A stretch of 64,000 bases of DNA from Candidatus Hecatella orcuttiae (lineage in GTDB: Archaea > Thermoproteota > Bathyarchaeia > Hecatellales > Hecatellaceae): contig MTLY02000002.1 in assembly GCA_002011035.2 (NCBI GenBank), forward strand, positions 352,001 to 416,000, read 5' to 3'. The first letter of the stretch is position 1. Each line of letters opens with the position of its first letter. The position numbers and the translations under genes were made by a program. The notes under the pieces were generated by a model that was not told where the DNA came from, did no database searches, and worked only from the letters and a program-made list of their open reading frames with translations. This document shows positions 1 through 9,367 of the stretch, in pieces.

Positions 1-2
1 AC

Positions 3-377
3 ATCAAAGGAAACAAGTACACCTTCACGGTTAGTTCTCCCATAAACCGAGATAAAATAATCAAGTTCATCGACCTAGTAGAAATGATGGCCGGTTCTTT
101 GGAAATTAAAAATCCCTCCTCCTCAGACACGAAATTTGAAAAAATCCTCCAAACCGTGAAAGAACACTATCCTTTTCAATGGTTTACATCCACTGAAGTT
201 CAGTTAGCTTATGAAGAAAAATTTAAGGAGCCCATAAGCCTCAGCACCGTTTCCACCTACCTAAGCAGGTACTGGGAACAAAAAATTCTAACCCGCGAAG
301 GCTCTCCAGCCAGTCTTCGGTATAGACTTAACCCTGAGGTTTTAAATTCAGCACCGAAACAAGAACGTAGTGGCTAG
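3..377 (+). CDS. Winged-helix domain hypothetical protein, 5' partial
   Basis: Frame is open from position 3 (IKGNKYTFTV...) into ORF 84..377. C-terminal FTSTEVQLAYEEKFKEPISLSTVSTYLSRY...ILTREG...YRL has a wHTH pattern. Confidence 0.7.
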   Translation: MKGNKYTFTVSSPINRDKIIKFIDLVEMMAGSLEIKNPSSSDTKFEKILQTVKEHYPFQWFTSTEVQLAYEEKFKEPISLSTVSTYLSRYWEQKILTREGSPASLRYRLNPEVLNSAPKQERSG

Positions 378-380
378 AAT

Positions 381-1100
381 TCAGAGAGGCTCTTCTTTAA
401 CAGAAAACTCAAAACTTTTCCTGATCCTTTCACTTAAACTATAGCTGAAAGGTATTACATCAGTGTTTCTAACCACATAACCTTCTCTGTAAAGTTTTTT
501 CATTAACCTCGCTGCGTGCTCCCGTGTTTTGCCGATGACCTCTCTAATTTCCGGAGCTGTTTTAGGGCCGCTGCGGTACAAAACTTTTAGGACAGCCATC
601 TCTGTGGGGGTTAAGCGAGCGATGGAGACGTTTCCCCCCTCTAGCGTTGGACTCGGCTCCTCCAAACGTGGAGTCAAGCCTCGCATTTTTTTATCTTGGG
701 CATTAACCTGCTGTTCAAGCTGGATACGCTTTTCATCTAGGGCAGATAGTTTATCGTTATGGACTTTCAATATTTTTGCGAATTTTGTCTGAGCGCGGAA
801 GAGCTCTTTGATATTGGCGGTTAATGCTGATAACGTTTCCCTCTCAGCTTCATGGAAAGATTGAAGGCGGTTTAACTCTGAAAAGGAAGCTTCAATTCTG
901 TGCAGAGCATAGGAGACACTCTCCTCAACTTTAGCCATCTTCTTACTTAACTGAACTATGGAAAGCTGAACCAAGTCGCTTAACTCCCCTAGAGAACTCT
1001 TTTTAGGCCTTCTGAATAGAAGCAGTGCGAGAAGAAATCCGAAGGCCGCTGTAAAACTCAACAAGCCTAGAAAAAACACTTCTCCGGAAAAAACCGTCAT
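381..1100 (-). CDS. Membrane-anchored coiled-coil protein with C-terminal winged-helix (MarR/TrmB-like) domain
   Basis: N-terminal hydrophobic helix (VFFLGLLSFTAAFGFLLALLLF) followed by RRPKK, a long heptad-rich middle region, then LTPTEMAVLKVL..GPKTAPEIREVIGKTREHAARLMKKLYREGYV wHTH. Confidence 0.8.
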   Translation of the reverse strand: MTVFSGEVFFLGLLSFTAAFGFLLALLLFRRPKKSSLGELSDLVQLSIVQLSKKMAKVEESVSYALHRIEASFSELNRLQSFHEAERETLSALTANIKELFRAQTKFAKILKVHNDKLSALDEKRIQLEQQVNAQDKKMRGLTPRLEEPSPTLEGGNVSIARLTPTEMAVLKVLYRSGPKTAPEIREVIGKTREHAARLMKKLYREGYVVRNTDVIPFSYSLSERIRKSFEFSVKEEPL

Positions 1101-1106
1101 GAAATC

Positions 1107-1499
1107 TCACTCACCCTCTCACATGTGACCTGAAGAAAATCACAGAAATAATCACCTGTGACCTCTTCAACTGCATAATTCCCACCTGATATCACAAGTG
1201 ATGCTTTTGTAAGCAAGCACATCACATTTGACCTGACATTCATTCAAAAAATTATTCTCTTTATCAGGATTTAAACCTTGTGATTCCACCTACAAATCAT
1301 GTGACATCACGTTTATATGATAATTTTTCATTAAAAAGGAGTTATTCGGTGAAAAGAAGCTTATTTTTAGGGCTAAAATTGTTTTTAAACAATAATATAA
1401 GTTTTTATGTTAAGACATCACATGTCAAGTCACAGCTGATGTTTATTTATGATTTCAGGCGGTCACGGCATCACATGTAATCTGTGACATCACGTTTGA
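1107..1499. repeat. Array of palindromic TCACnnnTGA boxes flanking an AT-rich core (candidate origin or centromere-like site)
   Basis: Boxes at 1119 (TCACATGTGA, perfect palindrome), 1152, 1192, 1222, 1307, 1418, 1430, 1471, 1490, plus degenerate partners. 15-bp direct repeat TGTGACATCACGTTT at 1300 and 1483. Core 1312-1413 has 20 G+C in 102 nt. Confidence 0.85.
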
Positions 1500-1993
1500 T
1501 ATTTCAATGACTTGGGAGAAGTCAAAGTATTTAGGGCTTTTTCCAAGGCCTCCCTTACAGAAACAATGGTTGCGGCTCTTTGAAGTTCGTCGGAACTTGA
1601 TGAGGACTCTTCGCGGACTTGTCTATGTAAATCTAAATAGTCCTTCAGTCTACTGGACAATTCGATGTATTGTTGGAAGGCAGGCAAGTCGAAGATCCCC
1701 AGGGAGCCCAGTAATAAAAACGTGTATATTGACTTTATTATGTTTTTCTGAGCTTGTTTCAGGGTTCTATTGAAAGAACCTTTACTAATTTTTCCTTTAA
1801 TTCTAAAATAAGTTTTTTCTTCAGTTATCATTTTATTTCCAGATAAATATGGAATTATAGTGTCTATTAGAAACGTTTCCAGCTGCGTTTTGGTTAAATG
1901 ACTGTTTTTAAGTAGAATATCAGTGATGGGGTCTTGGTCGAGGTTTCTTAGCCATTTTTTGAATTCTTCAGGGTCCTTTAATTCCACGCTCAA
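1490..1993 (-). CDS. Archaeal hypothetical protein with possible HTH
   Basis: 167-aa ORF. LTKTQLETFL...ISKGSFNRTLKQAQKNIIKS resembles a sigma70-region-4-like HTH followed by a hydrophobic helix. Confidence 0.65.
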   Translation of the reverse strand: MSVELKDPEEFKKWLRNLDQDPITDILLKNSHLTKTQLETFLIDTIIPYLSGNKMITEEKTYFRIKGKISKGSFNRTLKQAQKNIIKSIYTFLLLGSLGIFDLPAFQQYIELSSRLKDYLDLHRQVREESSSSSDELQRAATIVSVREALEKALNTLTSPKSLKYQT

Positions 1994-2132
1994 GGAAACA
2001 CCCTGAAAGAATACGTTTTTGTATACCAGTATTTAAATCTTCCCGCAATCATAAGGTCTAAGGTTCCAATTTTTGGAGGCTTACCATACCTTTAGAAGCT
2101 AGGTGAGCAGGGAAACCCAGGCTTTCCGGAGG

Positions 2133-3428
2133 CTAAACAGAAATCTTGGCGGAAAAAGGCTTACCGCCAAAGGTTTTTTCACAGACTTCCGCAACTTTTT
2201 CACGGAATTGCGGCAAGGTATAGACTCTCACAATGTCCATAAACTGGGTTAGGGATGCTAAAAGAGGAGAAAGCTCCGTGGCTTTTTGAACAATCACACC
2301 CGCAGGGGTCTTCCGGTAGACGAGGATGTCTGACCGCTGCCTCTCCACTGGGTTGATGGGTACGGAAAGAACTTGAGGGACGTCGATGACGATGAAGTCC
2401 GGGTCAACTCCGGTTTTTTCCCCGATTTCAACCTCAACCTCGCGGCGGATGTTAGGTTTGTTGAGGAGGTTGGAAAAGAAGGTGTCTTTTCTGAATATGA
2501 TAAGCTCGTAGGTGCTCTTCAGAAGCTTTCTGCTGCGAACCCCCAAAATATATTGGTAGGCTTTCTGAAGCTTTTGGTCGACTTCCTTCTTGAGGGAGAG
2601 CAGTCCTTCTAGGACTTTACCGTCGTCCAATCGGAGAAACTCCTCCACGTCTTTGAAGGAGGCGAGGCCCAATTTTTCGCAGGCAAAATCCATGGCCCTT
2701 GCAATCATAACATTAGTCGCCCGCACTGTTCGGTGGAAGTAGACAGTGTTAAACATTTCCATCCTAGCGATGATGAAGGATTCCAAGACGCCGAAAGCCC
2801 CTGAACCGTCGGCCATCAGCCTCTTCTCTATCAACTCTAGGGATGAGATAAGCCGCTGGGCATCCACCTTTCCATATTCCACTCCAGCGAAGTAGGAGTC
2901 CCGAGCCAGATAGTCCATGATGTCTGCGGAAAAGTGGCCGGCGATAACCTGGTTCAGAAAAATTCTCTCCGTACGGTCTAAATGTCCTGTGGAAAGCTGA
3001 GCTATCTCTTTCTTGGAGAAGCCATGACTGGAAAGGATGTCCCCGATTTCGCTGCTCTCAATCACCCACTGGGTGAGGTCTTCGTGAGTTTGATGGCGGT
3101 GCTTTTCGAGGATTTCTTCGTAGACATGGGAGAAGGGGCCGTGGCCTACGTCATGAAGCAGCCCTGCTAGACGGACTTTTTGAATTTCCTCCTCCGAAAT
3201 GTAGCCCTTTTCGGCGAGATAGACTCCCAGCATGCCTGCCAAGTGCATAACCCCGAGGGAGTGGAGGAAACGGGTGTGAACGGCGCCAGGGTAGGTTAGC
3301 TCAGCTCCTGCCAGCTGCTTGATGTTCCTCAGCCTCTGGACGGGGGTGGAATCGATGAGCTTCTTCTCCACTTCTGTGAATCGGATGTAACCGTGGACAG
3401 GGTCCTTGATTTCTCCAACTCCTTTCAA
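2133..3428 (-). CDS. HD-domain phosphohydrolase (SAMHD1/dNTP triphosphohydrolase-like)
   Basis: Motifs IKDPVHG, QRLRNIKQL, HTRFLHSLGV, LLHDVGHGPFSH, DIMDYLARD, VYFH. Confidence 0.92.
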   Translation of the reverse strand: MKGVGEIKDPVHGYIRFTEVEKKLIDSTPVQRLRNIKQLAGAELTYPGAVHTRFLHSLGVMHLAGMLGVYLAEKGYISEEEIQKVRLAGLLHDVGHGPFSHVYEEILEKHRHQTHEDLTQWVIESSEIGDILSSHGFSKKEIAQLSTGHLDRTERIFLNQVIAGHFSADIMDYLARDSYFAGVEYGKVDAQRLISSLELIEKRLMADGSGAFGVLESFIIARMEMFNTVYFHRTVRATNVMIARAMDFACEKLGLASFKDVEEFLRLDDGKVLEGLLSLKKEVDQKLQKAYQYILGVRSRKLLKSTYELIIFRKDTFFSNLLNKPNIRREVEVEIGEKTGVDPDFIVIDVPQVLSVPINPVERQRSDILVYRKTPAGVIVQKATELSPLLASLTQFMDIVRVYTLPQFREKVAEVCEKTFGGKPFSAKISV

Positions 3429-3446
3429 TGGAAGGATCAGTTTAAC

Positions 3447-3809
3447 TCACCTGAAGTGAATGCTGGTTTTCGAATTTCCCATGCTCTTAACGAGGTTCAT
3501 CAGCGTTCGACCTGCTAGGGGATCGTTTTCTTGGGGGATAAACACCGAAGCTAGGGCGGTCTTGCCCCATTTGGCTGCCAAATATTCCGCCAAAACCCTA
3601 GCGAGGTGGGAGTTCTTATAGCCGAGGAGAAGGCTTGAAGAATGAGGCGCGGAAGGAGGAATGGGCGGGGTTGCCACGGCTAGGGTGCCCAGTTTAGTTT
3701 TCTCCCCTTCGAAAAAGAAGCTTAGGATAGCGTTGTCCAGTTCGAAGATGTAGACTGAAAATTTTCTTCCTTCCAGCTCCACTGTTTTGCTTAGGGCTTG
3801 GGGGAACAT
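3447..3809 (-). CDS. Hypothetical protein, possibly proteasome assembly chaperone (PAC4-like)
   Basis: Likely ATG start at 3809 with AGGAGT just upstream. KLGTLAVATP...LARVLAEYLAAKWGKTALASV resembles the PAC4 family pattern. Confidence 0.5.
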   Translation of the reverse strand: MFPQALSKTVELEGRKFSVYIFELDNAILSFFFEGEKTKLGTLAVATPPIPPSAPHSSSLLLGYKNSHLARVLAEYLAAKWGKTALASVFIPQENDPLAGRTLMNLVKSMGNSKTSIHFR

Positions 3810-3844
3810 CACTCCTTTAATCTCCAAGAAATCCTTAAAACATT

Positions 3845-4627
3845 GTGCTGGAAAAGGGAAATAACTTTTTGCGGAGGATGATAGATAAAGTTCAACCGCT
3901 TGAGGCGGCGACGACTTTGAAGCAGGATGCCAGCTGGATGGGTTCAATAATTTCCAGACTTAGGAAACACTTCGGAAAAATAATGTGGGCCAAATCGAAA
4001 GACTCTTTCGAGATTCTCGTGGCAACGATCCTAAGTCAAAACACCTCCGATGTCAACAGCCATCGCGCCTTCAGAGAGTTAAAAAAAGCCATGAAGCTTA
4101 CTCCGCAGGTTCTGGCTGAAAAGCCTCTGGGAGAGATCAAGCAGGCCATTCGAACAGCTGGGCTGGCTGAAATCAAAGCTAAAAGGTTGAAAGAGGCTTC
4201 CAAGTTCATCTTGAGGGAACTGGGAGGAAACCTGTCCAAAGTGTTCAACCTCCCTCCAGAAGAGAGTAGAAATTTTCTGCTGAGATTACCAGGTGTCGGA
4301 GATAAAACCGCCGACGTCATCTTAGTTTTCGCGGGGGGAATCCCCGTTGTTCCAGTGGATACGCATCTTTTCACCATAGGGAAGAGGCTGGGGCTTACAG
4401 CTTCCAGCCGCTACCAAGATGTCAGAGCAGCCTACGAGCGGCTTATCCCTCCAAAGGAAAGGGCGGAGGCCCATGTTCTCTTCATCGAGTTGGGGAAAAA
4501 AATCTGCACGGCTAGGAATCCTAAGCATGAAGCTTGCCCTATTCTAGACCTGTGTCCCACGGGGCTGAAATCTGTCTCCCAAGTGGATGATGAGGCTGAG
4601 AGGCGGCTTTCTGATACAGGCATGTGA
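3845..4627 (+). CDS. nth: Endonuclease III family DNA glycosylase
   Basis: FEILVATILSQNTSD, HhH LPGVGDKTA, PVDTH, C-terminal C-x6-H-x2-C-x5-C cluster motif. True start is probably 3878 or 3938. Confidence 0.93.
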   Translation: MLEKGNNFLRRMIDKVQPLEAATTLKQDASWMGSIISRLRKHFGKIMWAKSKDSFEILVATILSQNTSDVNSHRAFRELKKAMKLTPQVLAEKPLGEIKQAIRTAGLAEIKAKRLKEASKFILRELGGNLSKVFNLPPEESRNFLLRLPGVGDKTADVILVFAGGIPVVPVDTHLFTIGKRLGLTASSRYQDVRAAYERLIPPKERAEAHVLFIELGKKICTARNPKHEACPILDLCPTGLKSVSQVDDEAERRLSDTGM

Positions 4628-4777
4628 CTATTTCCCACCTCCGTGGGGGAAGCTTCAGCATTTTTTCGTCAATTTTTCCTCTCCCAGCAGGCTTTAATCC
4701 CGTTTCCAATCCTTCTCTGATGATTGTGAAATTTTATATGATGTCCTTCACGCATAAGACTTGAGGCTGCAAAAGAA

Positions 4778-5413
4778 TTGAAACCGCTTAAAAACTGGGA
4801 AAAGAAGGATTCTCTCTTCGGAAAAATTAGCGACCGCTTCCACCGCACTCCGCCTTTGAGGGATAAGGTTTTCAACTCCCTCTACAAACTTAACAGCATC
4901 CAAGCTAAACTGGAGCAGTTGACCAACAAACTGGAGCAGAAGGATCGGGAGCTCTTTGGCAAATGCGCTGAATCCATGGCCCGGGGAGATGAGGAGCGTT
5001 CGAAGATCTATGCCAACGAGTGCGCTCAGCTGAGGAAGATGGCTAAAACCGTTTTGGGAAGCCAGCTGGCCATCGAGCAGGCTGCTTTAAGGCTGGAGAC
5101 GGTGAAGGAATTCGGAGACGTGGCCAAGGAGATGATGCCTGTAGCTGGTGTAGTTCGGTCGTTGAAAGGGAAGCTGGTGGGAGTTATGCCTGAAGCCTCC
5201 TTGGAGCTCAACGAAATTGGAGAAACATTAAACGAGATCATGTTCGAGGCGGGGGAAGTCTCCGCGTCGGCTCCCAGCTTCCAAGCCTCAGGGGAAGAGG
5301 CTCAGAAAATCCTTCAGTCCGCTTCGGTTTTGGCTGAGCAGAAAATGAAAGAGAAATTCCCCAAACTTCCAGTGGGAGAATTTGCGGAGGAGCGTTCTCC
5401 CGACCTCGGCTAG
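4778..5413 (+). CDS. cdvB: ESCRT-III (Snf7/CdvB family) protein without C-terminal winged helix
   Basis: KLEQKDRELFGKCA...ERSKIYANECAQLRKMAK...LAIEQAALRLETVKEFGD...GVMPE...EEAQKIL..A..LAEQKMKEKFPKLP, typical of archaeal CdvB paralogues. Confidence 0.92.
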   Translation: MKPLKNWEKKDSLFGKISDRFHRTPPLRDKVFNSLYKLNSIQAKLEQLTNKLEQKDRELFGKCAESMARGDEERSKIYANECAQLRKMAKTVLGSQLAIEQAALRLETVKEFGDVAKEMMPVAGVVRSLKGKLVGVMPEASLELNEIGETLNEIMFEAGEVSASAPSFQASGEEAQKILQSASVLAEQKMKEKFPKLPVGEFAEERSPDLG

Positions 5414-5515
5414 TCTTCAAAACAGTCCGCAGCCTAGTCTTTCAAGACTTCCTTCAAGCTACTCCGCTTCCCCCCTCAACAGTGCGAGGTGGTTTAGGAT
5501 AGAAGGTTATTTCCG

Positions 5516-6493
5516 ATGGGAAGAGAGGAAAGACTTGAAGATGAAGTCCTAAGGATCTTTTTCGTCCTCTTGTCTGTGGTGAGTTGGTTTTTTATTCTCC
5601 AGTGGGCAGCGGAGCTTCTAGGCTGGCCCAGCCGGCCGGCGGGGTGGTCCTACCTCGCCGCCTTCTACGGGGCCTCTGCCGCCTATCTGGTGGGAAGGAC
5701 GAAAGGGCGGCTTAGAAAGGTCGTCTACGACTCCCCTTTTGCCGCTTATATCAACCTCCTGATAATCCTCGTCCCCCTATTCCTCATCTACCTAGCCTTG
5801 GCAAATCCCCCGCTGGAGGAGGCTCCTGGAAAAATCAGCCGACTGACGGCTTCAAGCCCCCTCACCTTGGCTTCAGGTTGGCTTTTCTCCTTCACCGCCT
5901 ACAGGTTTCTGGACAAGCTCTACGACAGGATTTTTGGGGTTTTCGAAAAAACCGGCCCCAGAGTCAGCTTCAAGACATCCGGCCCCATTCAAAGAGATGC
6001 GGAGGAGGTAGCGGGGAGGCTTGAGGTTGAGGCTGGAAAGCTGGCAGCCAAAGCCTCTGCTTGGGAGAAGCATGCCCACAGGTTGTACGATAAAGCCTTA
6101 GCAGCTCAGGTTTCAGGAAAAGCCGATAAAGCCAGCGCCTACCTTACAGCCTACTGGGAGGCGAAGAAGAACTCAGACCTGCTGGTGAAGGTGCAGGTGC
6201 AACTGGAAGGCTTAGTGGAGAGGCTTAAAACCCTCCACAGCTTCGCGGAAACCATGGCCGAGATGCCCTCCGCCTTCAAAACCATTTCAGAGCTTAAAGG
6301 GAGACTGAAGGGAGTTATTCCCGCTTTCTCCGGCGAACTGGAGAAGATAGGGCGAACGGTAGAAGAGCTTCTGGCCAAGACGCAGGCTCACGGCGGCAGC
6401 CTCCCAGAACAGCTCCAGGGAAAAGAGGCTCAAAAAATCCTCCTAGAAGCCGGCGGCGTAGCAGAGGCGAGGCTGAGGCATGGGAAAGACTAA
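5516..6493 (+). CDS. Multi-pass membrane protein fused to a C-terminal ESCRT-III/CdvB-like domain
   Basis: About four hydrophobic segments in residues ~11-132. Residues ~157-322 align by eye with the upstream CdvB (LKGRLKGVIPAFSGELEKIG vs LKGKLVGVMPEASLELNEIG; EAQKILLEA vs EAQKILQSA). Confidence 0.85.
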   Translation: MGREERLEDEVLRIFFVLLSVVSWFFILQWAAELLGWPSRPAGWSYLAAFYGASAAYLVGRTKGRLRKVVYDSPFAAYINLLIILVPLFLIYLALANPPLEEAPGKISRLTASSPLTLASGWLFSFTAYRFLDKLYDRIFGVFEKTGPRVSFKTSGPIQRDAEEVAGRLEVEAGKLAAKASAWEKHAHRLYDKALAAQVSGKADKASAYLTAYWEAKKNSDLLVKVQVQLEGLVERLKTLHSFAETMAEMPSAFKTISELKGRLKGVIPAFSGELEKIGRTVEELLAKTQAHGGSLPEQLQGKEAQKILLEAGGVAEARLRHGKD

Positions 6494-6549
6494 TCTGCTT
6501 TGGAACCTGATCCTTAGGTGAAGTTTCCCTGTCCCTCGGAGGGTTTTGG

Positions 6550-7188
6550 ATGCTGGTCAAGAGACTGACGGTAGGGCCGCTGATGGGAAACTGCTACATC
6601 GTAGGCTGCGAGGAGACGGCTAAGGCCGCGGTCATCGACCCGGGGGCAGAGCCTGAGCGAATCTTAGAGGCGTTGAAGAAAAGCCGTTTAAAGCCTGTTT
6701 ACATTGTCAACACCCACGGCCACCCGGATCATGTCTCCGCCAATGCTCCGGTGAAGAGGAGGACCAGCGCCCTGATTCTGATACACGAACTGGACGCCTC
6801 CCTGCTTTCTTCCCCCCGCCTAGACTCGGAGATAGAGCTCCTCCTCGATGTCGGGGAGAATTCCCCCCCGCCTGACAGGCTGTTGAAGGACGGGGAAACC
6901 ATCCGGGTGGGGAAGGTCACGTTTCAAGTCCTCCACACTCCCGGCCACACCCCCGGCAGCATCTGCCTCCTCGCCGAGGGCAGCCTCTTCACCGGAGACA
7001 CCCTCTTCGCCGGCAGCGTGGGTAGGACGGACCTCCCCGGCGGCTCCCCGGAGGCCTTGAGAAACTCGCTCCAGCGGAAGCTTCTGCCCTTGGACGACGG
7101 GTTAACCGTCTACCCTGGACACGGACCCCCCTCCACCTTAGGCTACGAGAAGAAGCACAATCTCTTCCTCAAGTCTTCTTTTCTCTGA
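6550..7188 (+). CDS. MBL-fold metallo-hydrolase (glyoxalase II-like)
   Basis: THGHPDH, HTPGHTPG, FTGDTLF, YPGHG. Confidence 0.93.
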   Translation: MLVKRLTVGPLMGNCYIVGCEETAKAAVIDPGAEPERILEALKKSRLKPVYIVNTHGHPDHVSANAPVKRRTSALILIHELDASLLSSPRLDSEIELLLDVGENSPPPDRLLKDGETIRVGKVTFQVLHTPGHTPGSICLLAEGSLFTGDTLFAGSVGRTDLPGGSPEALRNSLQRKLLPLDDGLTVYPGHGPPSTLGYEKKHNLFLKSSFL

Positions 7189-7204
7189 GATTGAAGGCAC
7201 AGGG

Positions 7205-7819
7205 TTGGAGGCCGCTGGGTTGGTGAGGGTTCTGGGCGTGGAAGATGGCAGTTTTCCCAGCTGGCCGGCTGGGGTTAAGAAGGGAAAGGCTCTTCTCGCC
7301 GCGGTCACTCTCCGAGATTTCACCGTCGAAGACGTTGCCCTCGCTTGGGTGGCTGTAGACGGCTGGGATGCCACCGAGGCCGTCATCCAGATGGTGAAGC
7401 AGGGAGGGAAAAAACCAGACTTGGTGATGTTGGCCTCCCTTGCCTACGCCGGCTTCAACCTCGTCGACCCGGAGGAGGTTCACCGCCGCCTCCGCCTCCC
7501 CGTCCTCATTGTAAACCCCCAGAAACCCGACAGCTTAGCCGTGGAAGCCGCCCTTAAGAAGCATTTCCCCAACTGGAAGCAGAGACTCGCCATCTTGGAT
7601 AAGGCTAAAAAACCCTACAAACTCAGCTTGGAAGAAGGCGGAGAAGTGTTCTTCTACACCTACGGCCTAAGGGCCTTCGAAGCCCGAAAGCTCATCAAAA
7701 AACTGACAGTCTTCGGCCACCGCCCCGAACCCTTGAGGGTCGCCCGGCTGATAGCCCGAGGTCTCAGCCCTTCAAGGCGCGCCAAGCATCCGAGAAAAAT
7801 CCATCACGGTCAAGGCTAA
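7205..7819 (+). CDS. DUF99 family (endonuclease V-like) protein
   Basis: VLGVEDGSF, VAVDGWDAT, AGFNLVD, PEPLRVARLIA. Confidence 0.85.
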   Translation: MEAAGLVRVLGVEDGSFPSWPAGVKKGKALLAAVTLRDFTVEDVALAWVAVDGWDATEAVIQMVKQGGKKPDLVMLASLAYAGFNLVDPEEVHRRLRLPVLIVNPQKPDSLAVEAALKKHFPNWKQRLAILDKAKKPYKLSLEEGGEVFFYTYGLRAFEARKLIKKLTVFGHRPEPLRVARLIARGLSPSRRAKHPRKIHHGQG

Positions 7820-9367
7820 GGTTTTCAGATTGACCACCGCTGCCACACCGGGGGTGGGCGTTAACCCCAGCCTCTGCTGGTAGAGGGTCTGCTTTTGCCA
7901 ACACCCGGAATTGATCAGCCTCACCCCCCGGTAGTAGGTTTGGTCGAACACATGAATGTGGCCTGCGTGGTAAACGTCGGGAACCCGGTCCACCACCATC
8001 CAGTCCCGGGTCTCCGGGGCTATGGGGGTCCTCTGCCCGTAGACAGGGCTCAAATGCCGACCCTTGAGAAGGCCCAGCATGGCCTTGGCGGGGTTCCGGT
8101 GGCTGACGTTGGGCATGGAGACTAGGACGTCCTCCAAGCTTCGCCCGTGGTGGAGGAGAAACTCAACTCCGTGAAGCCTCACCTGCGCCGGGTTTCCCAG
8201 GGAAACCAGCTGAGAGCCGCATTTCTCGTAGAGGGCTTCGGCGTATTTTTTAGAAAGAGCCGGCTGGGGTAAAGCCTTTCGAACGGCGTCGTGGTTTCCC
8301 GGAATGACAATGATGACAATGTGGTCTGGAACCTGTTCGAGCAGAGCGGCAGCTGCCTCGTATTGGCGGCAAACGTCCTGAATCTCCAACTCTTCTTCCT
8401 GCTGAGGGTAGACTCCTATCCCGTCGACCAAGTCTCCTGCCACCAGAAGATACTTGACCTTTCCGGCGAGCTCCCTCTCCCGGCGGCCTCCCCCGCCTCC
8501 CCTCAGCCACCCGAGAAAGGCTTGGAAAAGTTTCCCCTCAAAGACCTTGCTTCCCACGTGGAGGTCTGAAATCAGCACAGCGTTTACCTCCTCTGGGGAA
8601 AAGCCGGGTCTCCTCTGGGGAACATCCGGCAGGATTAGGTCTTCCGCCACAACCAAGCCGTTTCCAGTTTTAACGCCTACCACCCCTACAACTTGGTCTA
8701 AGAGCAGATTTCGAGCTTTGTCCACCAGCATGGGATTGGAGTCTTGGACGAGAACCTGAGCCTCTGCCTCCAAGTCATCCACTCTCAGAAAGAATCTTTT
8801 CCCACGGCTGACTTTTTCCGCCACCATGCCCACGAACTTAACCTTAGCTCCCGCCCTACCCTCCAAAGACTCCCTGATGGTGGCTGCGTCCCTCAAATCC
8901 AACCTTTGCCTCAGCAACCTTTTCAGCTGCTGAAAGCGGCTTCTGAAATATTCCATGAAGGCTTCCACGCTTCCCTTGGAAGCCAGCTGAAGAGTAGGGT
9001 CCATGACCACCTCCACCCTAGCTTCCACATCCTTGGCCTCCGGGCGGAAGATCCCTTTACCCATCTCCACAGGTTCAGCTTCCCGAAGCCCCTCTGTGGC
9101 AGCGCGCTTCTCCCTCTCCAGCGTGGAAGCCTCCTCCACCATGGCTTTGCTGACAAAGGGAAAAGAAGGAGGGGCCTCTGATAATTTCTTCAAAACTCTG
9201 TCGACAATCTGCTCCGGATCTTGACGTTGGGAGAGGGTTTGGAGGAGGCTGAAAGCTTCCGCCTGCATCTGGTAGCCGGCTTCGTGGACCTTTCGAAGAG
9301 CCCGCTTCACTTTTTCATCCGGCTGAGCTTCTGGGGTTTGACGGTAGCCTAAGGTTTCAGCCTCCAA
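7772..9367 (-). CDS. polB: DNA polymerase D small subunit DP1 (proofreading exonuclease)
   Basis: OB fold plus calcineurin-like motifs ISDLHVGS, AGDLVDGIGVYP, PGNHDA, HHG, RHLSP, AGHIH, NSGCWQ. Confidence 0.96.
   Translation of the reverse strand: MEAETLGYRQTPEAQPDEKVKRALRKVHEAGYQMQAEAFSLLQTLSQRQDPEQIVDRVLKKLSEAPPSFPFVSKAMVEEASTLEREKRAATEGLREAEPVEMGKGIFRPEAKDVEARVEVVMDPTLQLASKGSVEAFMEYFRSRFQQLKRLLRQRLDLRDAATIRESLEGRAGAKVKFVGMVAEKVSRGKRFFLRVDDLEAEAQVLVQDSNPMLVDKARNLLLDQVVGVVGVKTGNGLVVAEDLILPDVPQRRPGFSPEEVNAVLISDLHVGSKVFEGKLFQAFLGWLRGGGGGRRERELAGKVKYLLVAGDLVDGIGVYPQQEEELEIQDVCRQYEAAAALLEQVPDHIVIIVIPGNHDAVRKALPQPALSKKYAEALYEKCGSQLVSLGNPAQVRLHGVEFLLHHGRSLEDVLVSMPNVSHRNPAKAMLGLLKGRHLSPVYGQRTPIAPETRDWMVVDRVPDVYHAGHIHVFDQTYYRGVRLINSGCWQKQTLYQQRLGLTPTPGVAAVVNLKTLALTVMDFSRMLGAP

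Follow-up and report, generated by a model that had tools for sequence, protein, structure and literature searches.

A conserved gene module and box array beside a predicted replication origin of Bathyarchaeia, with a candidate membrane-anchored DNA-binding protein

At the left end of the 64,000-nucleotide stretch of Candidatus Hecatella orcuttiae DNA analysed here (the window), an AT-rich array of TCAC/GTGA boxes, ~400 bp long, lies between two genes, g2 and g3, with a third gene, g1, on the other side of g2. The predicted g2 protein combines a membrane helix with a DNA-binding head, which raises the question of which protein binds the boxes, and whether that protein holds the DNA at the membrane or regulates only its own gene. 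We know of no described system of chromosome positioning or segregation in archaea outside Sulfolobales, nor of any origin control there apart from Orc1/Cdc6. No published description of the three-gene module with its array was found.

The surroundings of the module point to a replication origin. An earlier note on this DNA had recorded no Cdc6 gene in the window, which is true within the window, but 488 bp beyond its left edge is the end of an orc1/cdc6 gene; the nearest ParA-type ATPase is 31 kb to the left. Three ORB elements, called by their match to the common ORB motif published in Table 1 of PMC4164010, lie between orc1/cdc6 and g1 at window positions -461, -299 and -215 (span -461 to -212), and six of the 12 genome-wide matches to TTCCA[CG]TGGAA fall within 4.1 kb around cdc6. 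Archaeal oriC is described as an ORB, an unwinding element and an ORB beside orc1/cdc6 (PMC4010727, PMC4164010). Judged by sequence, the canonical origin is the cdc6-g1 spacer just left of the window, in which ORBs flank an AT-rich stretch. Gene g1 is divergent from orc1/cdc6 across the ORB cluster and convergent with g2, and both g1 and g2 intervene between cdc6 and the box array, which is 1.3 kb from the ORB cluster. The second orc1/cdc6 gene of the genome had neither ORBs nor boxes nearby, and cumulative GC skew showed no usable turning point on any contig.

In layout the array may be compared with an archaeal oriC, since opposed repeats surround an AT-rich core near an initiator gene, with g1 and g2 in between. 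However, its boxes are not ORBs, and the ORB cluster occupies a separate spacer. No ORB-like element (≤2 mismatches of 12 in the ORB core) was found in window 1100-1500; TTCCACCTACAAA appeared ORB-like by eye, yet it is not conserved in relatives, and an ORB inside the array was rejected.

What distinguishes the array is the clustering of its boxes. The window contained 17 matches to TCACATGTGA with ≤2 mismatches, a number not above that of shuffled sequences (14.8 ± 3.8), so the signal lies in their clustering, with eight of them within 1119-1499. There were 20 TCAC/GTGA half-sites in 1101-1500, compared with a genome mean of 2.58 per 400 bp, and no other stretch of the 1.75-Mb genome is as dense in ATCAC/GTGAT as the array, which has 10 per 400 bp where the next-ranking stretch has 6. 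The exact TCACATGTGA decamer occurs once in the genome, and no second array was found in it. The array core (Table 1) holds the most AT-rich 80-bp window (GC 0.21) among the non-coding stretches scanned. The ATTTAAA-N2-TTGTGAT block is invariant in an alignment of five out of five close relatives and looks, from its sequence, like a TATA box plus a box that could face either way; a block of the g3-proximal kind is also kept in relatives. GC content was 0.31-0.48 in 1-2100 and mostly 0.49-0.65 in 2100-8000, with two dips to 0.43, in agreement with the earlier observation that this block is AT-richer than the sequence following it.

Two other assignments for this stretch were dropped. A small ORF at 1280-1480 (+) had, by eye, no comparable frame in relatives, and a C/D-box sRNA, proposed from GTGATG/CTGA words, does not fit 10-20 boxes per locus. 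A search of window 1-2200 against Rfam gave no match at E up to 1, which rules out a known RNA family as the explanation and leaves room for a new RNA.

Table 1 Features of the module and its surroundings; positions refer to the window unless L002 is named.
Feature	Position	Strand	Remarks
orc1/cdc6 gene	L002 13209-14513		434 aa; Cdc6_lid E 7e-26, Cdc6_C E 2e-24
g1	1..377, continuing left of the window (L002 14967-15377)	+	136 aa, TTG start
g2	381..1100	-	239 aa, ATG; predicted membrane-anchored coiled-coil winged-helix protein
g2 residues 165-234, MarR-type winged helix	399..608	-	Pfam, alignment, model, Foldseek
g2 residues 37-140, putative coiled-coil stalk	681..992	-	single 104-residue helix, pLDDT 89-98
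g2 residues 4-29, N-terminal transmembrane helix (predicted)	1014..1091	-	AlphaFold2 model and hydropathy
g2-proximal box cluster	1105..1231	.	overlaps g2 5' region
Boxes of the g2-proximal cluster	1119, 1139, 1151, 1191, 1221		TCACATGTGA (1119), ATCACAG (1139), ATCACCTGTGA (1151), ATCACAAGTGAT (1191), ATCACATTTGA (1221)
Central element	1269..1311	.	ATTTAAA-N2-TTGTGAT (1269-1284), then TGTGACATCAC (1300-1310)
AT-rich array core	1312..1416	.	GC 0.21-0.25 in 80-bp windows starting 1321-1361
g3-proximal box cluster	1417..1499	.	ATCACATGTCAAGTCACAG, GGTCACGGCATCACATGTAATCTGTGACATCACG; last box overlaps g3 stop codon
g3	1490..1993	-	167 aa, TTG; all-helical, no known family

The architecture first read from the letters of g2, a transmembrane helix, a coiled coil of ~100 aa and a winged helix-turn-helix, was borne out by Pfam and by structure prediction. 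The MarR profile PF01047 matched aa 163-213 with 28.7 bits (cut-off 24.6), and the AlphaFold2 model (mean pLDDT 87) consists of helix 4-29, helix 37-140, a low-confidence linker and the winged helix 165-234, after which only one short helix follows. Foldseek returned MarR family members at the top, together with AspA (5k5q, 4rs8) and MecI, at E 2e-4 to 1e-3. The winged-helix core of g2 fits the MarR profile; however, g2 is without the helical dimerisation/ligand domain of that family and has the membrane helix and the 104-residue helix instead. The hydrophobic 19-mer of the membrane helix has a Kyte-Doolittle value of 2.35, with no K/R before it and four after it, and because the K/R lie solely on its C-terminal side, the remaining parts of g2 are predicted to be cytoplasmic. 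Of the 29 a/d positions in the best heptad register of the stalk, 21 are hydrophobic. In an alignment of 21 g2 homologues, 20 have a comparable membrane helix, whose charges follow the positive-inside pattern. Invariant in all 21 is the recognition-helix motif R-E-H-x2-R-x2-K-x-L (R193 E194 H195 R198 K201 L203). The tail before the membrane helix is just 0-20 residues long, which speaks against a sensor outside the cytoplasm. One copy of g2 per genome was found in 24 of 41 relatives. In further searches, g2 reached no NCBIfam cut-off, a large protein search gave nine matches, none of them named, and a PDB profile search gave coiled-coil noise and one MarR match.

The start codon of g1 is 34 nt beyond the left edge of the window, so that 11 codons fall outside and the ORF seen in the window is 3..377. 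Its product is predicted to have an N-terminal beta-rich and a C-terminal winged-helix-like domain. The earlier note had taken g1 for a winged helix-turn-helix gene converging on g2; the convergence stands, and the DNA-binding nature is suggested by matches to Penicillinase_R (BlaI/MecI-type winged helix) in 8 of 11 homologues, all of them below the Pfam threshold. When the profiles of g1 and g2 were compared, 31 columns in the region of the recognition helix and wing could be aligned, but with a probability of 22%, too low to count as a relationship. Protein-atlas matches of g1 were clusters from Nitrososphaerota and Bathyarchaeota. The product of g3, modelled as all-helical with pLDDT 86, had no Pfam or NCBIfam match, and PDB profile searches with g1 and g3 gave nothing below E 0.27. 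Foldseek found weak sigma-70 region-4-like similarity for g3 (4qic, probability 0.69; 3vep, probability 0.63; both E >2), and the model may represent a helix-turn-helix of the sigma-70 region-4 kind, with a helical hairpin at the C-terminal end. In a wide search with VIA-align, all matches were generic ones to this hairpin (Z <8), with the N-terminal part uncovered. In the protein atlas, g3 matched Bathyarchaeota clusters of "hypothetical protein", and the sole lead was a cluster from Hadarchaeota in which 14% of the members carry Sigma70_r4 (score 0.79). Of the initial description of g3 as an HTH-like gene ending in the last box, the overlap holds, and the helix-turn-helix is putative.

The module is not confined to this genome. 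The gene order cdc6 - ORB - g1 - g2 - array - g3 recurs across Bathyarchaeia. Synteny of the three genes elsewhere had been set beforehand as a test of the module, and in 80 public Bathyarchaeia-type g2 loci g3 was present in 74, g1 in 69 and cdc6 in 66. Its order is common to family-level kin and to amoA-positive ammonia-oxidiser genomes of another class. In a phylum sample, g1 was found in 132 of 201 genomes, and it adjoins an ORB or cdc6 in the loci examined.

The boxes are conserved along with the genes. The median ATCAC/GTGAT density was 23.3 per kb in the g3-g2 interval and 1.7 per kb in the flanks, with a more than threefold excess over the flanks in all 70 measurable loci, and ATCACA was the top enriched 6-mer across loci (14.6x). 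The box unit is a heptad, (A/C)ATCACA, often 7 bp apart and in both orientations; same-orientation spacings peaked at 7 bp (64 + 37 cases) and at 10-11 bp (46 cases), and the repeat orientation is opposed on the two sides of the AT-rich core. The earlier picture of a palindrome read by a coiled-coil dimer was therefore too simple: palindromes do occur, TCACATGTGA and GTGATATCAC among them, but the commonest unit is the 7-bp-phased heptad, direct and inverted, and the prevailing arrangement is tandem heptads with a 7-bp period.

Variant loci show which gene the boxes accompany. In five loci without g3 (L139, L159, L164, L166 and L167), all with the conserved TCACTCACAACC-AAAACCTTAAAA block in common, the boxes lie directly upstream of g2 and the upstream neighbour is an HTH_3-CBS gene. 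Soluble-type g2 loci have a box immediately upstream of the BRE/TATA-like AAAACCTTAAAA block, and rearranged lineages have the TCACATGTGA palindrome at the promoter/start of a CBS-g2 operon. Lineages with an inverted g3 keep part of the boxes at the g3 3' end, away from g2. Overlap between the boxes and the promoter region of g2 was seen in all lineages examined, and the recognition-helix motif of g2 is matched in its constancy by the box core. By a strict cluster rule, an ATCAC cluster was located directly upstream of g2 in only 10 of 25 g2 loci of the phylum sample, and no such cluster was found within 5 kb in eight loci with g1 but without g2. The boxes thus follow g2, since they remain upstream of it where g3 is missing and form no cluster near g1 where g2 is missing, and we infer from this sequence pattern that g2 is the protein that binds them. 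It should be noted that g1 accompanies g2, so the co-occurrence also fits g1 or a g1-g2 complex as the box binder. Furthermore, a 7-bp repeat is a signature of ribbon-helix-helix binders, not of MarR-type dimers, which counts against g2 as the binder. The link between 7-bp repeats and ribbon-helix-helix proteins is backed by PMC9499535.

The membrane helix of g2 is variable. It is present in 65 of the 80 Bathyarchaeia loci, where g2 in most cases has the build of a DNA-to-membrane bridge, and absent from 15, one of which is cut by a contig end; 15 of the 25 phylum-sample homologues also lack it. Loci whose g2 has no membrane helix still keep the boxes and the gene neighbourhood, and tethering cannot therefore be the ancestral or universal function of the module. 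The median number of ATCAC per 520 bp was eight in loci with the membrane helix and three in those without, although larger arrays with the helix are weak evidence because related genomes are not independent.

The reading that we prefer, at a little under an even chance, is that g2 is a self-regulating box binder which, in this genome, is inserted in the membrane and holds origin-proximal DNA there. The array would be a docking platform separate from the canonical origin, with heptads that lie on both sides of the AT-rich core and coincide in part with the promoter region of g2. Through its long helix g2 would oligomerise, and its flexibly linked winged-helix heads would read one box each, so that many copies load the array. 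The loaded g2 would repress or tune its own gene and, where it is inserted in the membrane, would keep DNA 1.3 kb from the origin at the cytoplasmic membrane. The oligomeric state, membrane insertion and autoregulation of g2 are all predicted here, and the tether could serve in origin positioning, segregation or initiation control. We regard as unlikely a further version in which g2 is an integral-membrane origin anchor, the ATCACA arrays at the side of oriC are centromere-like and clamped to the membrane by many g2 copies, and g1 and g3 are accessory origin-binding factors. Proximity to the origin could also matter for gene dosage or cdc6 regulation, not for DNA anchoring.

Known systems offer partial parallels to such a protein. 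RacA of Bacillus subtilis has a DNA-binding head on a coiled coil and fixes the origin region to the cell envelope; it is soluble, is anchored via DivIVA, binds ~25 GC-rich sites around the origin and acts in sporulation only. As far as Pfam and NCBIfam show, g2 is not a RacA homologue. ToxR/CadC-type regulators have a winged helix tied to the membrane by a single helix, with an N-terminal DNA-binding domain and a large sensor outside, whereas g2 has no extracytoplasmic sensor domain, with only 0-20 residues outside in the 21 homologues. RicO of S. aureus is described as a protein that unites a DNA-binding domain with a coiled coil and a helix that binds the membrane, and which has origin-proximal sites and a proposed role as a bridge between origin DNA and the membrane, its function being shown experimentally (10.64898/2026.03.06.710092). 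By architecture only, g2 is like RicO in combining a DNA-binding domain, a coiled coil and a membrane element in one polypeptide. However, RicO is bacterial, has the opposite domain order and a C-terminal amphipathic helix rather than a transmembrane helix, and its nine 18-bp sites are dispersed over ~700 kb, in contrast to the one dense heptad array here. The likeness comes with no sequence relationship seen between the two, and the function is experimental for RicO and predicted for g2.

The array itself has a counterpart in the centromere of plasmid pSM19035, whose sites are described as arrays of contiguous WATCACW heptads in both orientations that overlap promoters, with one binding unit thought to occupy each heptad (PMC9499535). 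The two share 7-bp units, an ATCAC core, direct and inverted repeats and promoter overlap. The binder of the plasmid sites, omega, is a ribbon-helix-helix dimer with a co-encoded ParA ATPase, unlike the module here. Compared with the omega/ParG type Ib systems, g2 has a winged helix and g3 is all-helical; a ribbon-helix-helix fold is not predicted for either of them or for g1, and the distance to the nearest ParA-type gene is 31 kb. The common ATCAC core is probably a coincidence.

Several other explanations of the module have to be weighed against the tether. We place on the unlikely side, as a possibility that the promoter boxes keep in view, that g2 is a membrane-sequestered MarR-type transcription factor and that the boxes are operators of its own gene or operon only. 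The anchor would then keep the factor in store or set it free, for instance through regulated proteolysis or by sensing membrane state, and the proximity to the origin would be incidental or would serve cell-cycle timing or gene dosage. The boxes on the g2 promoter region in all lineages examined, including the AAAACCTTAAAA-type block and the CBS-g2 operon palindrome, agree with this, as do the soluble orthologues (15/25) and the one target locus in the genome, which is what a pure autoregulator would have. However, 10-20 half-sites over 300-400 bp, with an AT-rich core and a reach to the g3 3' end, far exceed what an operator needs; linkage to ORBs and cdc6 is maintained in two classes, the short g2 tail leaves no extracytoplasmic sensing domain, and part of the array stays with g3 where g3 is inverted. 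Another alternative is that the array is not primarily a g2 site but acts in replication control at the origin. It might be an additional unwinding site, serve as an accessory platform or take up initiator or regulator as a sink, and its binder would be g3, g1 or Orc1/Cdc6; a parallel is provided by the downstream ORB cluster that, according to a review, negatively regulates a haloarchaeal origin (PMC4010727). Inverted box clusters do flank the most AT-rich 80 bp scanned in non-coding DNA, 1.3 kb from the ORBs and beside replication genes; neighbours in relatives include the small subunit of DNA polymerase D and HerA-NurA, and g1, carried by 132 of the 201 phylum-sample genomes, stands next to an ORB or cdc6 in the loci examined. 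We nevertheless consider a replication-control element quite improbable, since the array contains no ORB-like element at ≤2 mismatches of 12, the second orc1/cdc6 gene has neither ORBs nor boxes nearby, g1 loci without g2 have no array, loci without g3 keep their boxes, and GC skew is uninformative.

The centromere-like layout of the boxes also brings to mind a remnant of a partition or replication cassette from an integrated plasmid or virus, captured beside the origin together with its array. The AT-richness of the block relative to its surroundings, the occurrence of heptad arrays with an ATCAC core as plasmid centromeres (PMC9499535) and the resemblance of the g2 winged helix to AspA, the centromere-binding protein of pNOB8 (E 3e-4), are consistent with such an origin. 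However, the Foldseek search gave many generic matches to winged helices, of which AspA is one, and the module occurs once per genome in a constant chromosomal context across the class and beyond. The neighbouring ORFs that were scanned gave no integrase-family or ParA match, the nearest ParA-type gene being the one 31 kb away, and a captured cassette appears extremely improbable to us.

The module is a concrete candidate for origin positioning or control in archaea, conserved at class level and beyond, and it offers three uncharacterised DNA-binding-type proteins together with a unique array of 10-20 sites beside oriC. If g2 is indeed a membrane anchor, it would provide the first direct connection of an archaeal replication origin to the membrane, in Bathyarchaeia and in ammonia oxidisers, and a literal case of the membrane attachment that was reportedly part of the classical replicon model of Jacob, Brenner and Cuzin. 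If g2 is only a self-regulating factor, the module would still add three new families of origin-linked proteins, together with one new recognition element. Ammonia-oxidising archaea include cultured strains. Moreover, the origin of one ammonia-oxidiser member has been mapped experimentally (cited in PMC4010727), and the presence of the module in amoA-positive ammonia oxidisers therefore makes the question of an origin-membrane link directly testable. In all five ammonia-oxidiser loci examined, g2 is built like a DNA-to-membrane bridge.

The three open reading frames that the earlier note had presented as putative DNA-binding genes (g1, g2 and g3) were all recovered at the positions listed in the table. 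As DNA-binding genes, g2 is solid, g1 plausible and g3 weak, because g2 passed the Pfam threshold for MarR, g1 matched below threshold and g3 gave weak Foldseek matches. Residues 163-213 of g2 matched MarR with 28.7 bits against a curated cut-off of 24.6. The AlphaFold2 model of g2, built with 21 homologues as input (mean pLDDT 87), had four parts: a helix (residues 4-29), a single unbroken helix (37-140), a linker of low confidence and a winged helix (165-234). The first of these was highly hydrophobic (19-residue Kyte-Doolittle score 2.35), was flanked by K/R on its C-terminal side only and was preceded by no more than 20 residues across the 21 homologues. From this K/R placement and short tail, the stalk and DNA-binding head are predicted to be cytoplasmic, with no extracellular part able to sense. 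The membrane helix, long helix and C-terminal winged helix described previously were therefore upheld by Pfam, AlphaFold2 and hydrophobicity. The head is a MarR-type winged helix, also similar to AspA and MecI, and in the model it lacks the MarR dimerisation domain.

The flanking genome placed the start of g1 34 nt outside the window, on its left, which makes the protein 136 aa long; sub-threshold matches to BlaI/MecI-type winged helices were found in 8 of 11 homologues. For g3, no family match was found in Pfam or NCBIfam. Its model was all-helical (pLDDT 86), and Foldseek returned weak sigma-70 region-4-like matches for the N-terminal half and nothing stronger. TTG is the predicted frame-preserving start codon of both g1 and g3, here and in many relatives.

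Coordinates of the module and its flank (window positions unless L002, the flanking locus fetched around the window start, is named)
Feature	Position	Strand	Description
g1	3..377	+	ORF, runs off the window on the left
g2	381..1100	-	ORF, 239 aa
g3	1490..1993	-	ORF, 167 aa
orc1/cdc6	L002 13209-14513	-	Cdc6_lid and Cdc6_C domains
cdc6-g1 spacer	L002 14514-14966 (window -486 to -34)		Three origin recognition boxes (ORBs), one with a G-string, around an AT-rich stretch

The box array of ATCACA-type heptads in the g3-g2 gap proved real by its clustering, its excess of half-sites and its rank as the unique densest window of the genome. Matches to TCACATGTGA with up to two mismatches numbered 17 in the window, a total no higher than in shuffles; the signal lay in the clustering, with 8 of the 17 falling in 1119-1499. 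TCAC/GTGA half-sites occurred 20 times in 1101-1500, whereas the genome averages 2.58 per 400 bp. The array held 10 ATCAC/GTGAT words per 400 bp (next best 6) in the 1.75-Mb genome, windows ranking below it consisting of dispersed words within genes, and the exact decamer TCACATGTGA occurred once genome-wide. GC content fell to 0.21 over 80 bp in the array core, and no Rfam family matched the array region. The surrounding block is indeed AT-richer, as had been remarked: GC was 0.31-0.48 as far as position 2100; between there and 8000 it was mostly 0.49-0.65 and dipped twice to 0.43. By eye, an AAGCTT palindrome (window 1357-1362) and GGCT(A/T)AAA words recur in the AT-rich core (array centres of L025, L026 and L030, loci from relatives), where a second protein could bind. 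The second densest genome window (G000:C3:124851-125250) is an ORF-free 400 bp of GC 0.41 with 6 scattered ATCAC/GTGAT words, in which no heptad phasing was found.

The public records with the closest g2 relatives are labelled Candidatus Hecatellales or Bathyarchaeia/Bathyarchaeota. Among 41 relatives, 24 carried g2, as a single copy per genome; within its own family it was present in 11 of 13 genomes. The order p166 (a 166-aa protein gene) - HD hydrolase - g3 - gap - g2 - g1 - cdc6 was repeated in 20 loci of these genomes, local insertions aside. The best 80 public g2 loci contained g3 in 74, g1 in 69, cdc6 in 66 and an exact ORB core in 35. In the 70 loci with a measurable gap (of the other ten, six lacked g3, two had it inverted and two had gaps above 1.5 kb), ATCAC/GTGAT density had a median of 23.3 per kb in the gap and 1.7 per kb elsewhere in the locus, exceeded three times the flank in 70 of 70, and ATCACA was the top enriched 6-mer (14.6-fold). 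Synteny also extended beyond the class, contrary to the refuting case named in the earlier note, a trio not syntenic elsewhere. Across the phylum sample, g1 occurred in 132 of 201 genomes, and its look-alikes in the protein atlas were mainly Nitrososphaerota. The 33 loci fetched around g1 or g2 matches carried g1 in 30, a g2 homologue with a matched winged helix in 25, g3 in 15 and cdc6 in 14. Complete genomes of one family of another class showed cdc6 (-), diverged ORBs, g1 (+), a g2 homologue (-), ATCAC boxes and g3 (-). Archaeal amoA was present in 3 of 3 genomes of this family, which are therefore those of ammonia oxidisers. The g2 homologue of the family, 186-232 aa long, joins a membrane helix to a short stalk and keeps the same recognition helix.

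Within 68 loci, the commonest spacing of same-orientation neighbours was 7 bp (64 + 37 cases), with a second peak at 10-11 bp (46 cases). The unit A-x-ATCAC-A corresponds to the heptad (A/C)ATCACA, and inverted pairs form palindromes of the GTGATATCAC type. Read from g3 to g2, forward units gathered at both gap ends and reverse units at 50-90% of the gap length, and the clusters are therefore opposed on either side of an AT-rich core. A mid-array block, ATTTAAA-N2-TTGTGAT, was invariant in the five closest relatives and resembles a TATA box combined with one of the array boxes. In ammonia-oxidiser loci (L137, 3100-3250; L138, L149, L163, L169), several TGTGAT boxes lie within the 3' coding part of g3 and coincide with conserved codons D-V-I and S-V-I, a sign either of constraint on the coding sequence or of its serving two purposes.

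The earlier note had reported no Cdc6 or ParA gene. Both are indeed absent from the window, yet the orc1/cdc6 gene (434 aa) ends only 488 bp to its left, and the nearest ParA-type ATPase (AAA_31, 180 bits; G000:C2:320645-321394, L170 3145-3894, minus strand) is 31 kb from the array on the same side. Directly upstream of the latter gene sits a 78-aa ORF without a known family. The 453-bp cdc6-g1 spacer contains TTTCCACTGGAAAA, an inverted TTTTCCAGTGGAAACATAGGGGTGG and TTTCCACTGGAAAAGG, which conform to the 'common' ORB motif TCCA[CG]T[TG]GAAA[TC][GA]AAGGGGT tabulated in PMC4164010. TTCCA[CG]TGGAA had 12 genome matches, six of them within 4.1 kb around cdc6. Because of the ORB elements and the adjoining cdc6, this spacer is the predicted canonical oriC; GC skew was uninformative on origin position. 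The array lies 1.3 kb to the right and was ruled out as a canonical origin, since no ORB-like element (up to 2/12 mismatches) was found inside it. Three more near-perfect ORB cores, two with C/G-strings, occur 3-4 kb beyond cdc6 (L002 10726-11974; window -4274 to -3026), inside or between nucleotidyl-transferase and 5-formyltetrahydrofolate cyclo-ligase genes, and may be an accessory ORB cluster. A second orc1/cdc6 paralogue on the same contig (G000:C2:182587-182865, L004; Cdc6_C 74 bits) had no ORB core or box array in its 6-kb surroundings, with 4 ATCAC words only.

Covariation cannot tell which protein binds, as neither the box core nor the recognition helix of any of the three proteins varied much. 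Gene-content contrasts suggest that the boxes track g2 best. Five loci of one lineage lacked g3 in the fetched region and had an HTH_3-CBS gene upstream of g2; TGTGA/TCACA boxes were retained in the 150 bp before g2, and a conserved TCACTCACAACC stood immediately 5' of a BRE/TATA-like AAAACCTTAAAA. In inverted-g3 lineages with a CBS gene before g2, a TCACATGTGA palindrome marked the start of the CBS-g2 operon and additional boxes remained at the g3 3' end. Eight loci with g1 but without g2 had no ATCAC cluster within 5 kb (L143 has one 5.6 kb off). Under a strict rule (at least 4 ATCAC/GTGAT, gaps up to 80 bp), the cluster lay directly upstream of g2 in 10 of the 25 phylum-sample g2 loci and elsewhere in the module in 4; the other 11 had none, some of them carrying TCACA boxes without the leading A. 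On these comparisons g3 appears dispensable for the boxes, and g1 may be a binder or co-binder, since it always accompanies g2. The HTH_3 (XRE-type) gene with a CBS pair directly upstream of g2 (L058 5035-5622, L097 4910-5488, L062 4889-5500; also L139, L159, L164, L166, L167) apparently forms one operon with it, with the boxes in front, and could encode a ligand-sensing partner.

The hydrophobic N-terminal helix was found in 20 of 21 aligned g2 homologues (the start of the exception was probably mis-chosen), in 65 of the 80 Bathyarchaeia loci and in 10 of 25 phylum-sample homologues; the five ammonia-oxidiser loci all have it and count among these 10. Of the 15 anchor-less Bathyarchaeia loci, one runs into a contig end, and the loci with a cdc6 match beyond g3 account for 11. 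Helix-bearing loci had a median of 8 ATCAC per 520 bp and helix-less loci 3, only a hint that larger arrays go with the helix because the genomes compared share kinship. The conserved core of the family is the coiled coil, winged helix and boxes adjoining g1 and the origin, and the anchor is a frequent addition. Thus the tethering interpretation gained support in synteny, origin context and anchor architecture, but not in the anchor as a universal feature.

As the best, still tentative reading, we propose that g2 oligomerises through its long helix and that its flexibly linked heads would load onto the heptad array, one box each. Heat-shock factor similarly carries a winged helix on a long coiled coil and reads contiguous short units in either orientation; such reading by g2 would explain the direct and inverted units and the 7-, 10- and 11-bp spacing. 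Every lineage examined has boxes over the g2 promoter region, which would make autoregulation the minimal function. A pure membrane-sequestered autoregulator is the next, less likely reading. With g2 predicted to be membrane-inserted here, binding would also keep a stretch of DNA that lies 1.3 kb from the ORBs attached to the membrane, and this tether may be the selected function, in origin positioning, segregation or initiation-envelope coupling. We regard as improbable that the array is a replication-control element with g3, g1 or Orc1 as its binder: the nearby oriC and the position of g1 beside it speak for this, the boxes of g3-less loci and the lack of ORBs in the array against it. Capture of a plasmid or virus cassette seems very remote. 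The array resembles the omega-bound centromeres of pSM19035, described in PMC9499535 as promoter-overlapping runs of 7-10 contiguous WATCACW heptads, direct as well as inverted; there, however, the binder is a ribbon-helix-helix protein with an adjacent ParA.

RacA/DivIVA is the older analogy for a DNA-to-envelope anchor. The nearest functional analogue is RicO of S. aureus, in which a DNA-binding domain is combined with a coiled coil and an amphipathic helix that binds the membrane; it recognises nine sites around oriC, and origins are mislocalised when it is lost (preprint 10.64898/2026.03.06.710092). In principle g2 has the architecture of both, with another domain order, anchor type and site layout and apparently no shared sequence. 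In the main texts of the literature searched, on origins and Cdc6 in Bathyarchaeota and thaumarchaea (Nitrosopumilus included), on membrane-anchored, coiled-coil winged-helix proteins and archaeal segregation, and on MarR-type or transmembrane transcription factors of these groups, no description was found of this origin-proximal, DNA-binding module, which may bridge DNA and membrane; it is made up of three uncharacterised protein families and a new recognition element.

An HD-domain phosphohydrolase (HD + HD_assoc_2; window 2133-3428, minus strand) and the 166-aa gene (3447-3947, minus strand) are kept upstream of g3 on the same strand in family-level relatives. Some Bathyarchaeia (L063 6694-9259 and 11781-12563, complete chromosome CP070828.1) have a HerA-like/NurA-like pair between g2 and g1 and a DNA polymerase D small-subunit gene after cdc6. 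In other lineages (L034, L070 and L098) a HypF insertion separates the array from g2, and in one ammonia-oxidiser genome a small AbrB/SpoVT-like ORF, recognised by eye, lies between g1 and g2 (L137 2110-2232, minus strand).
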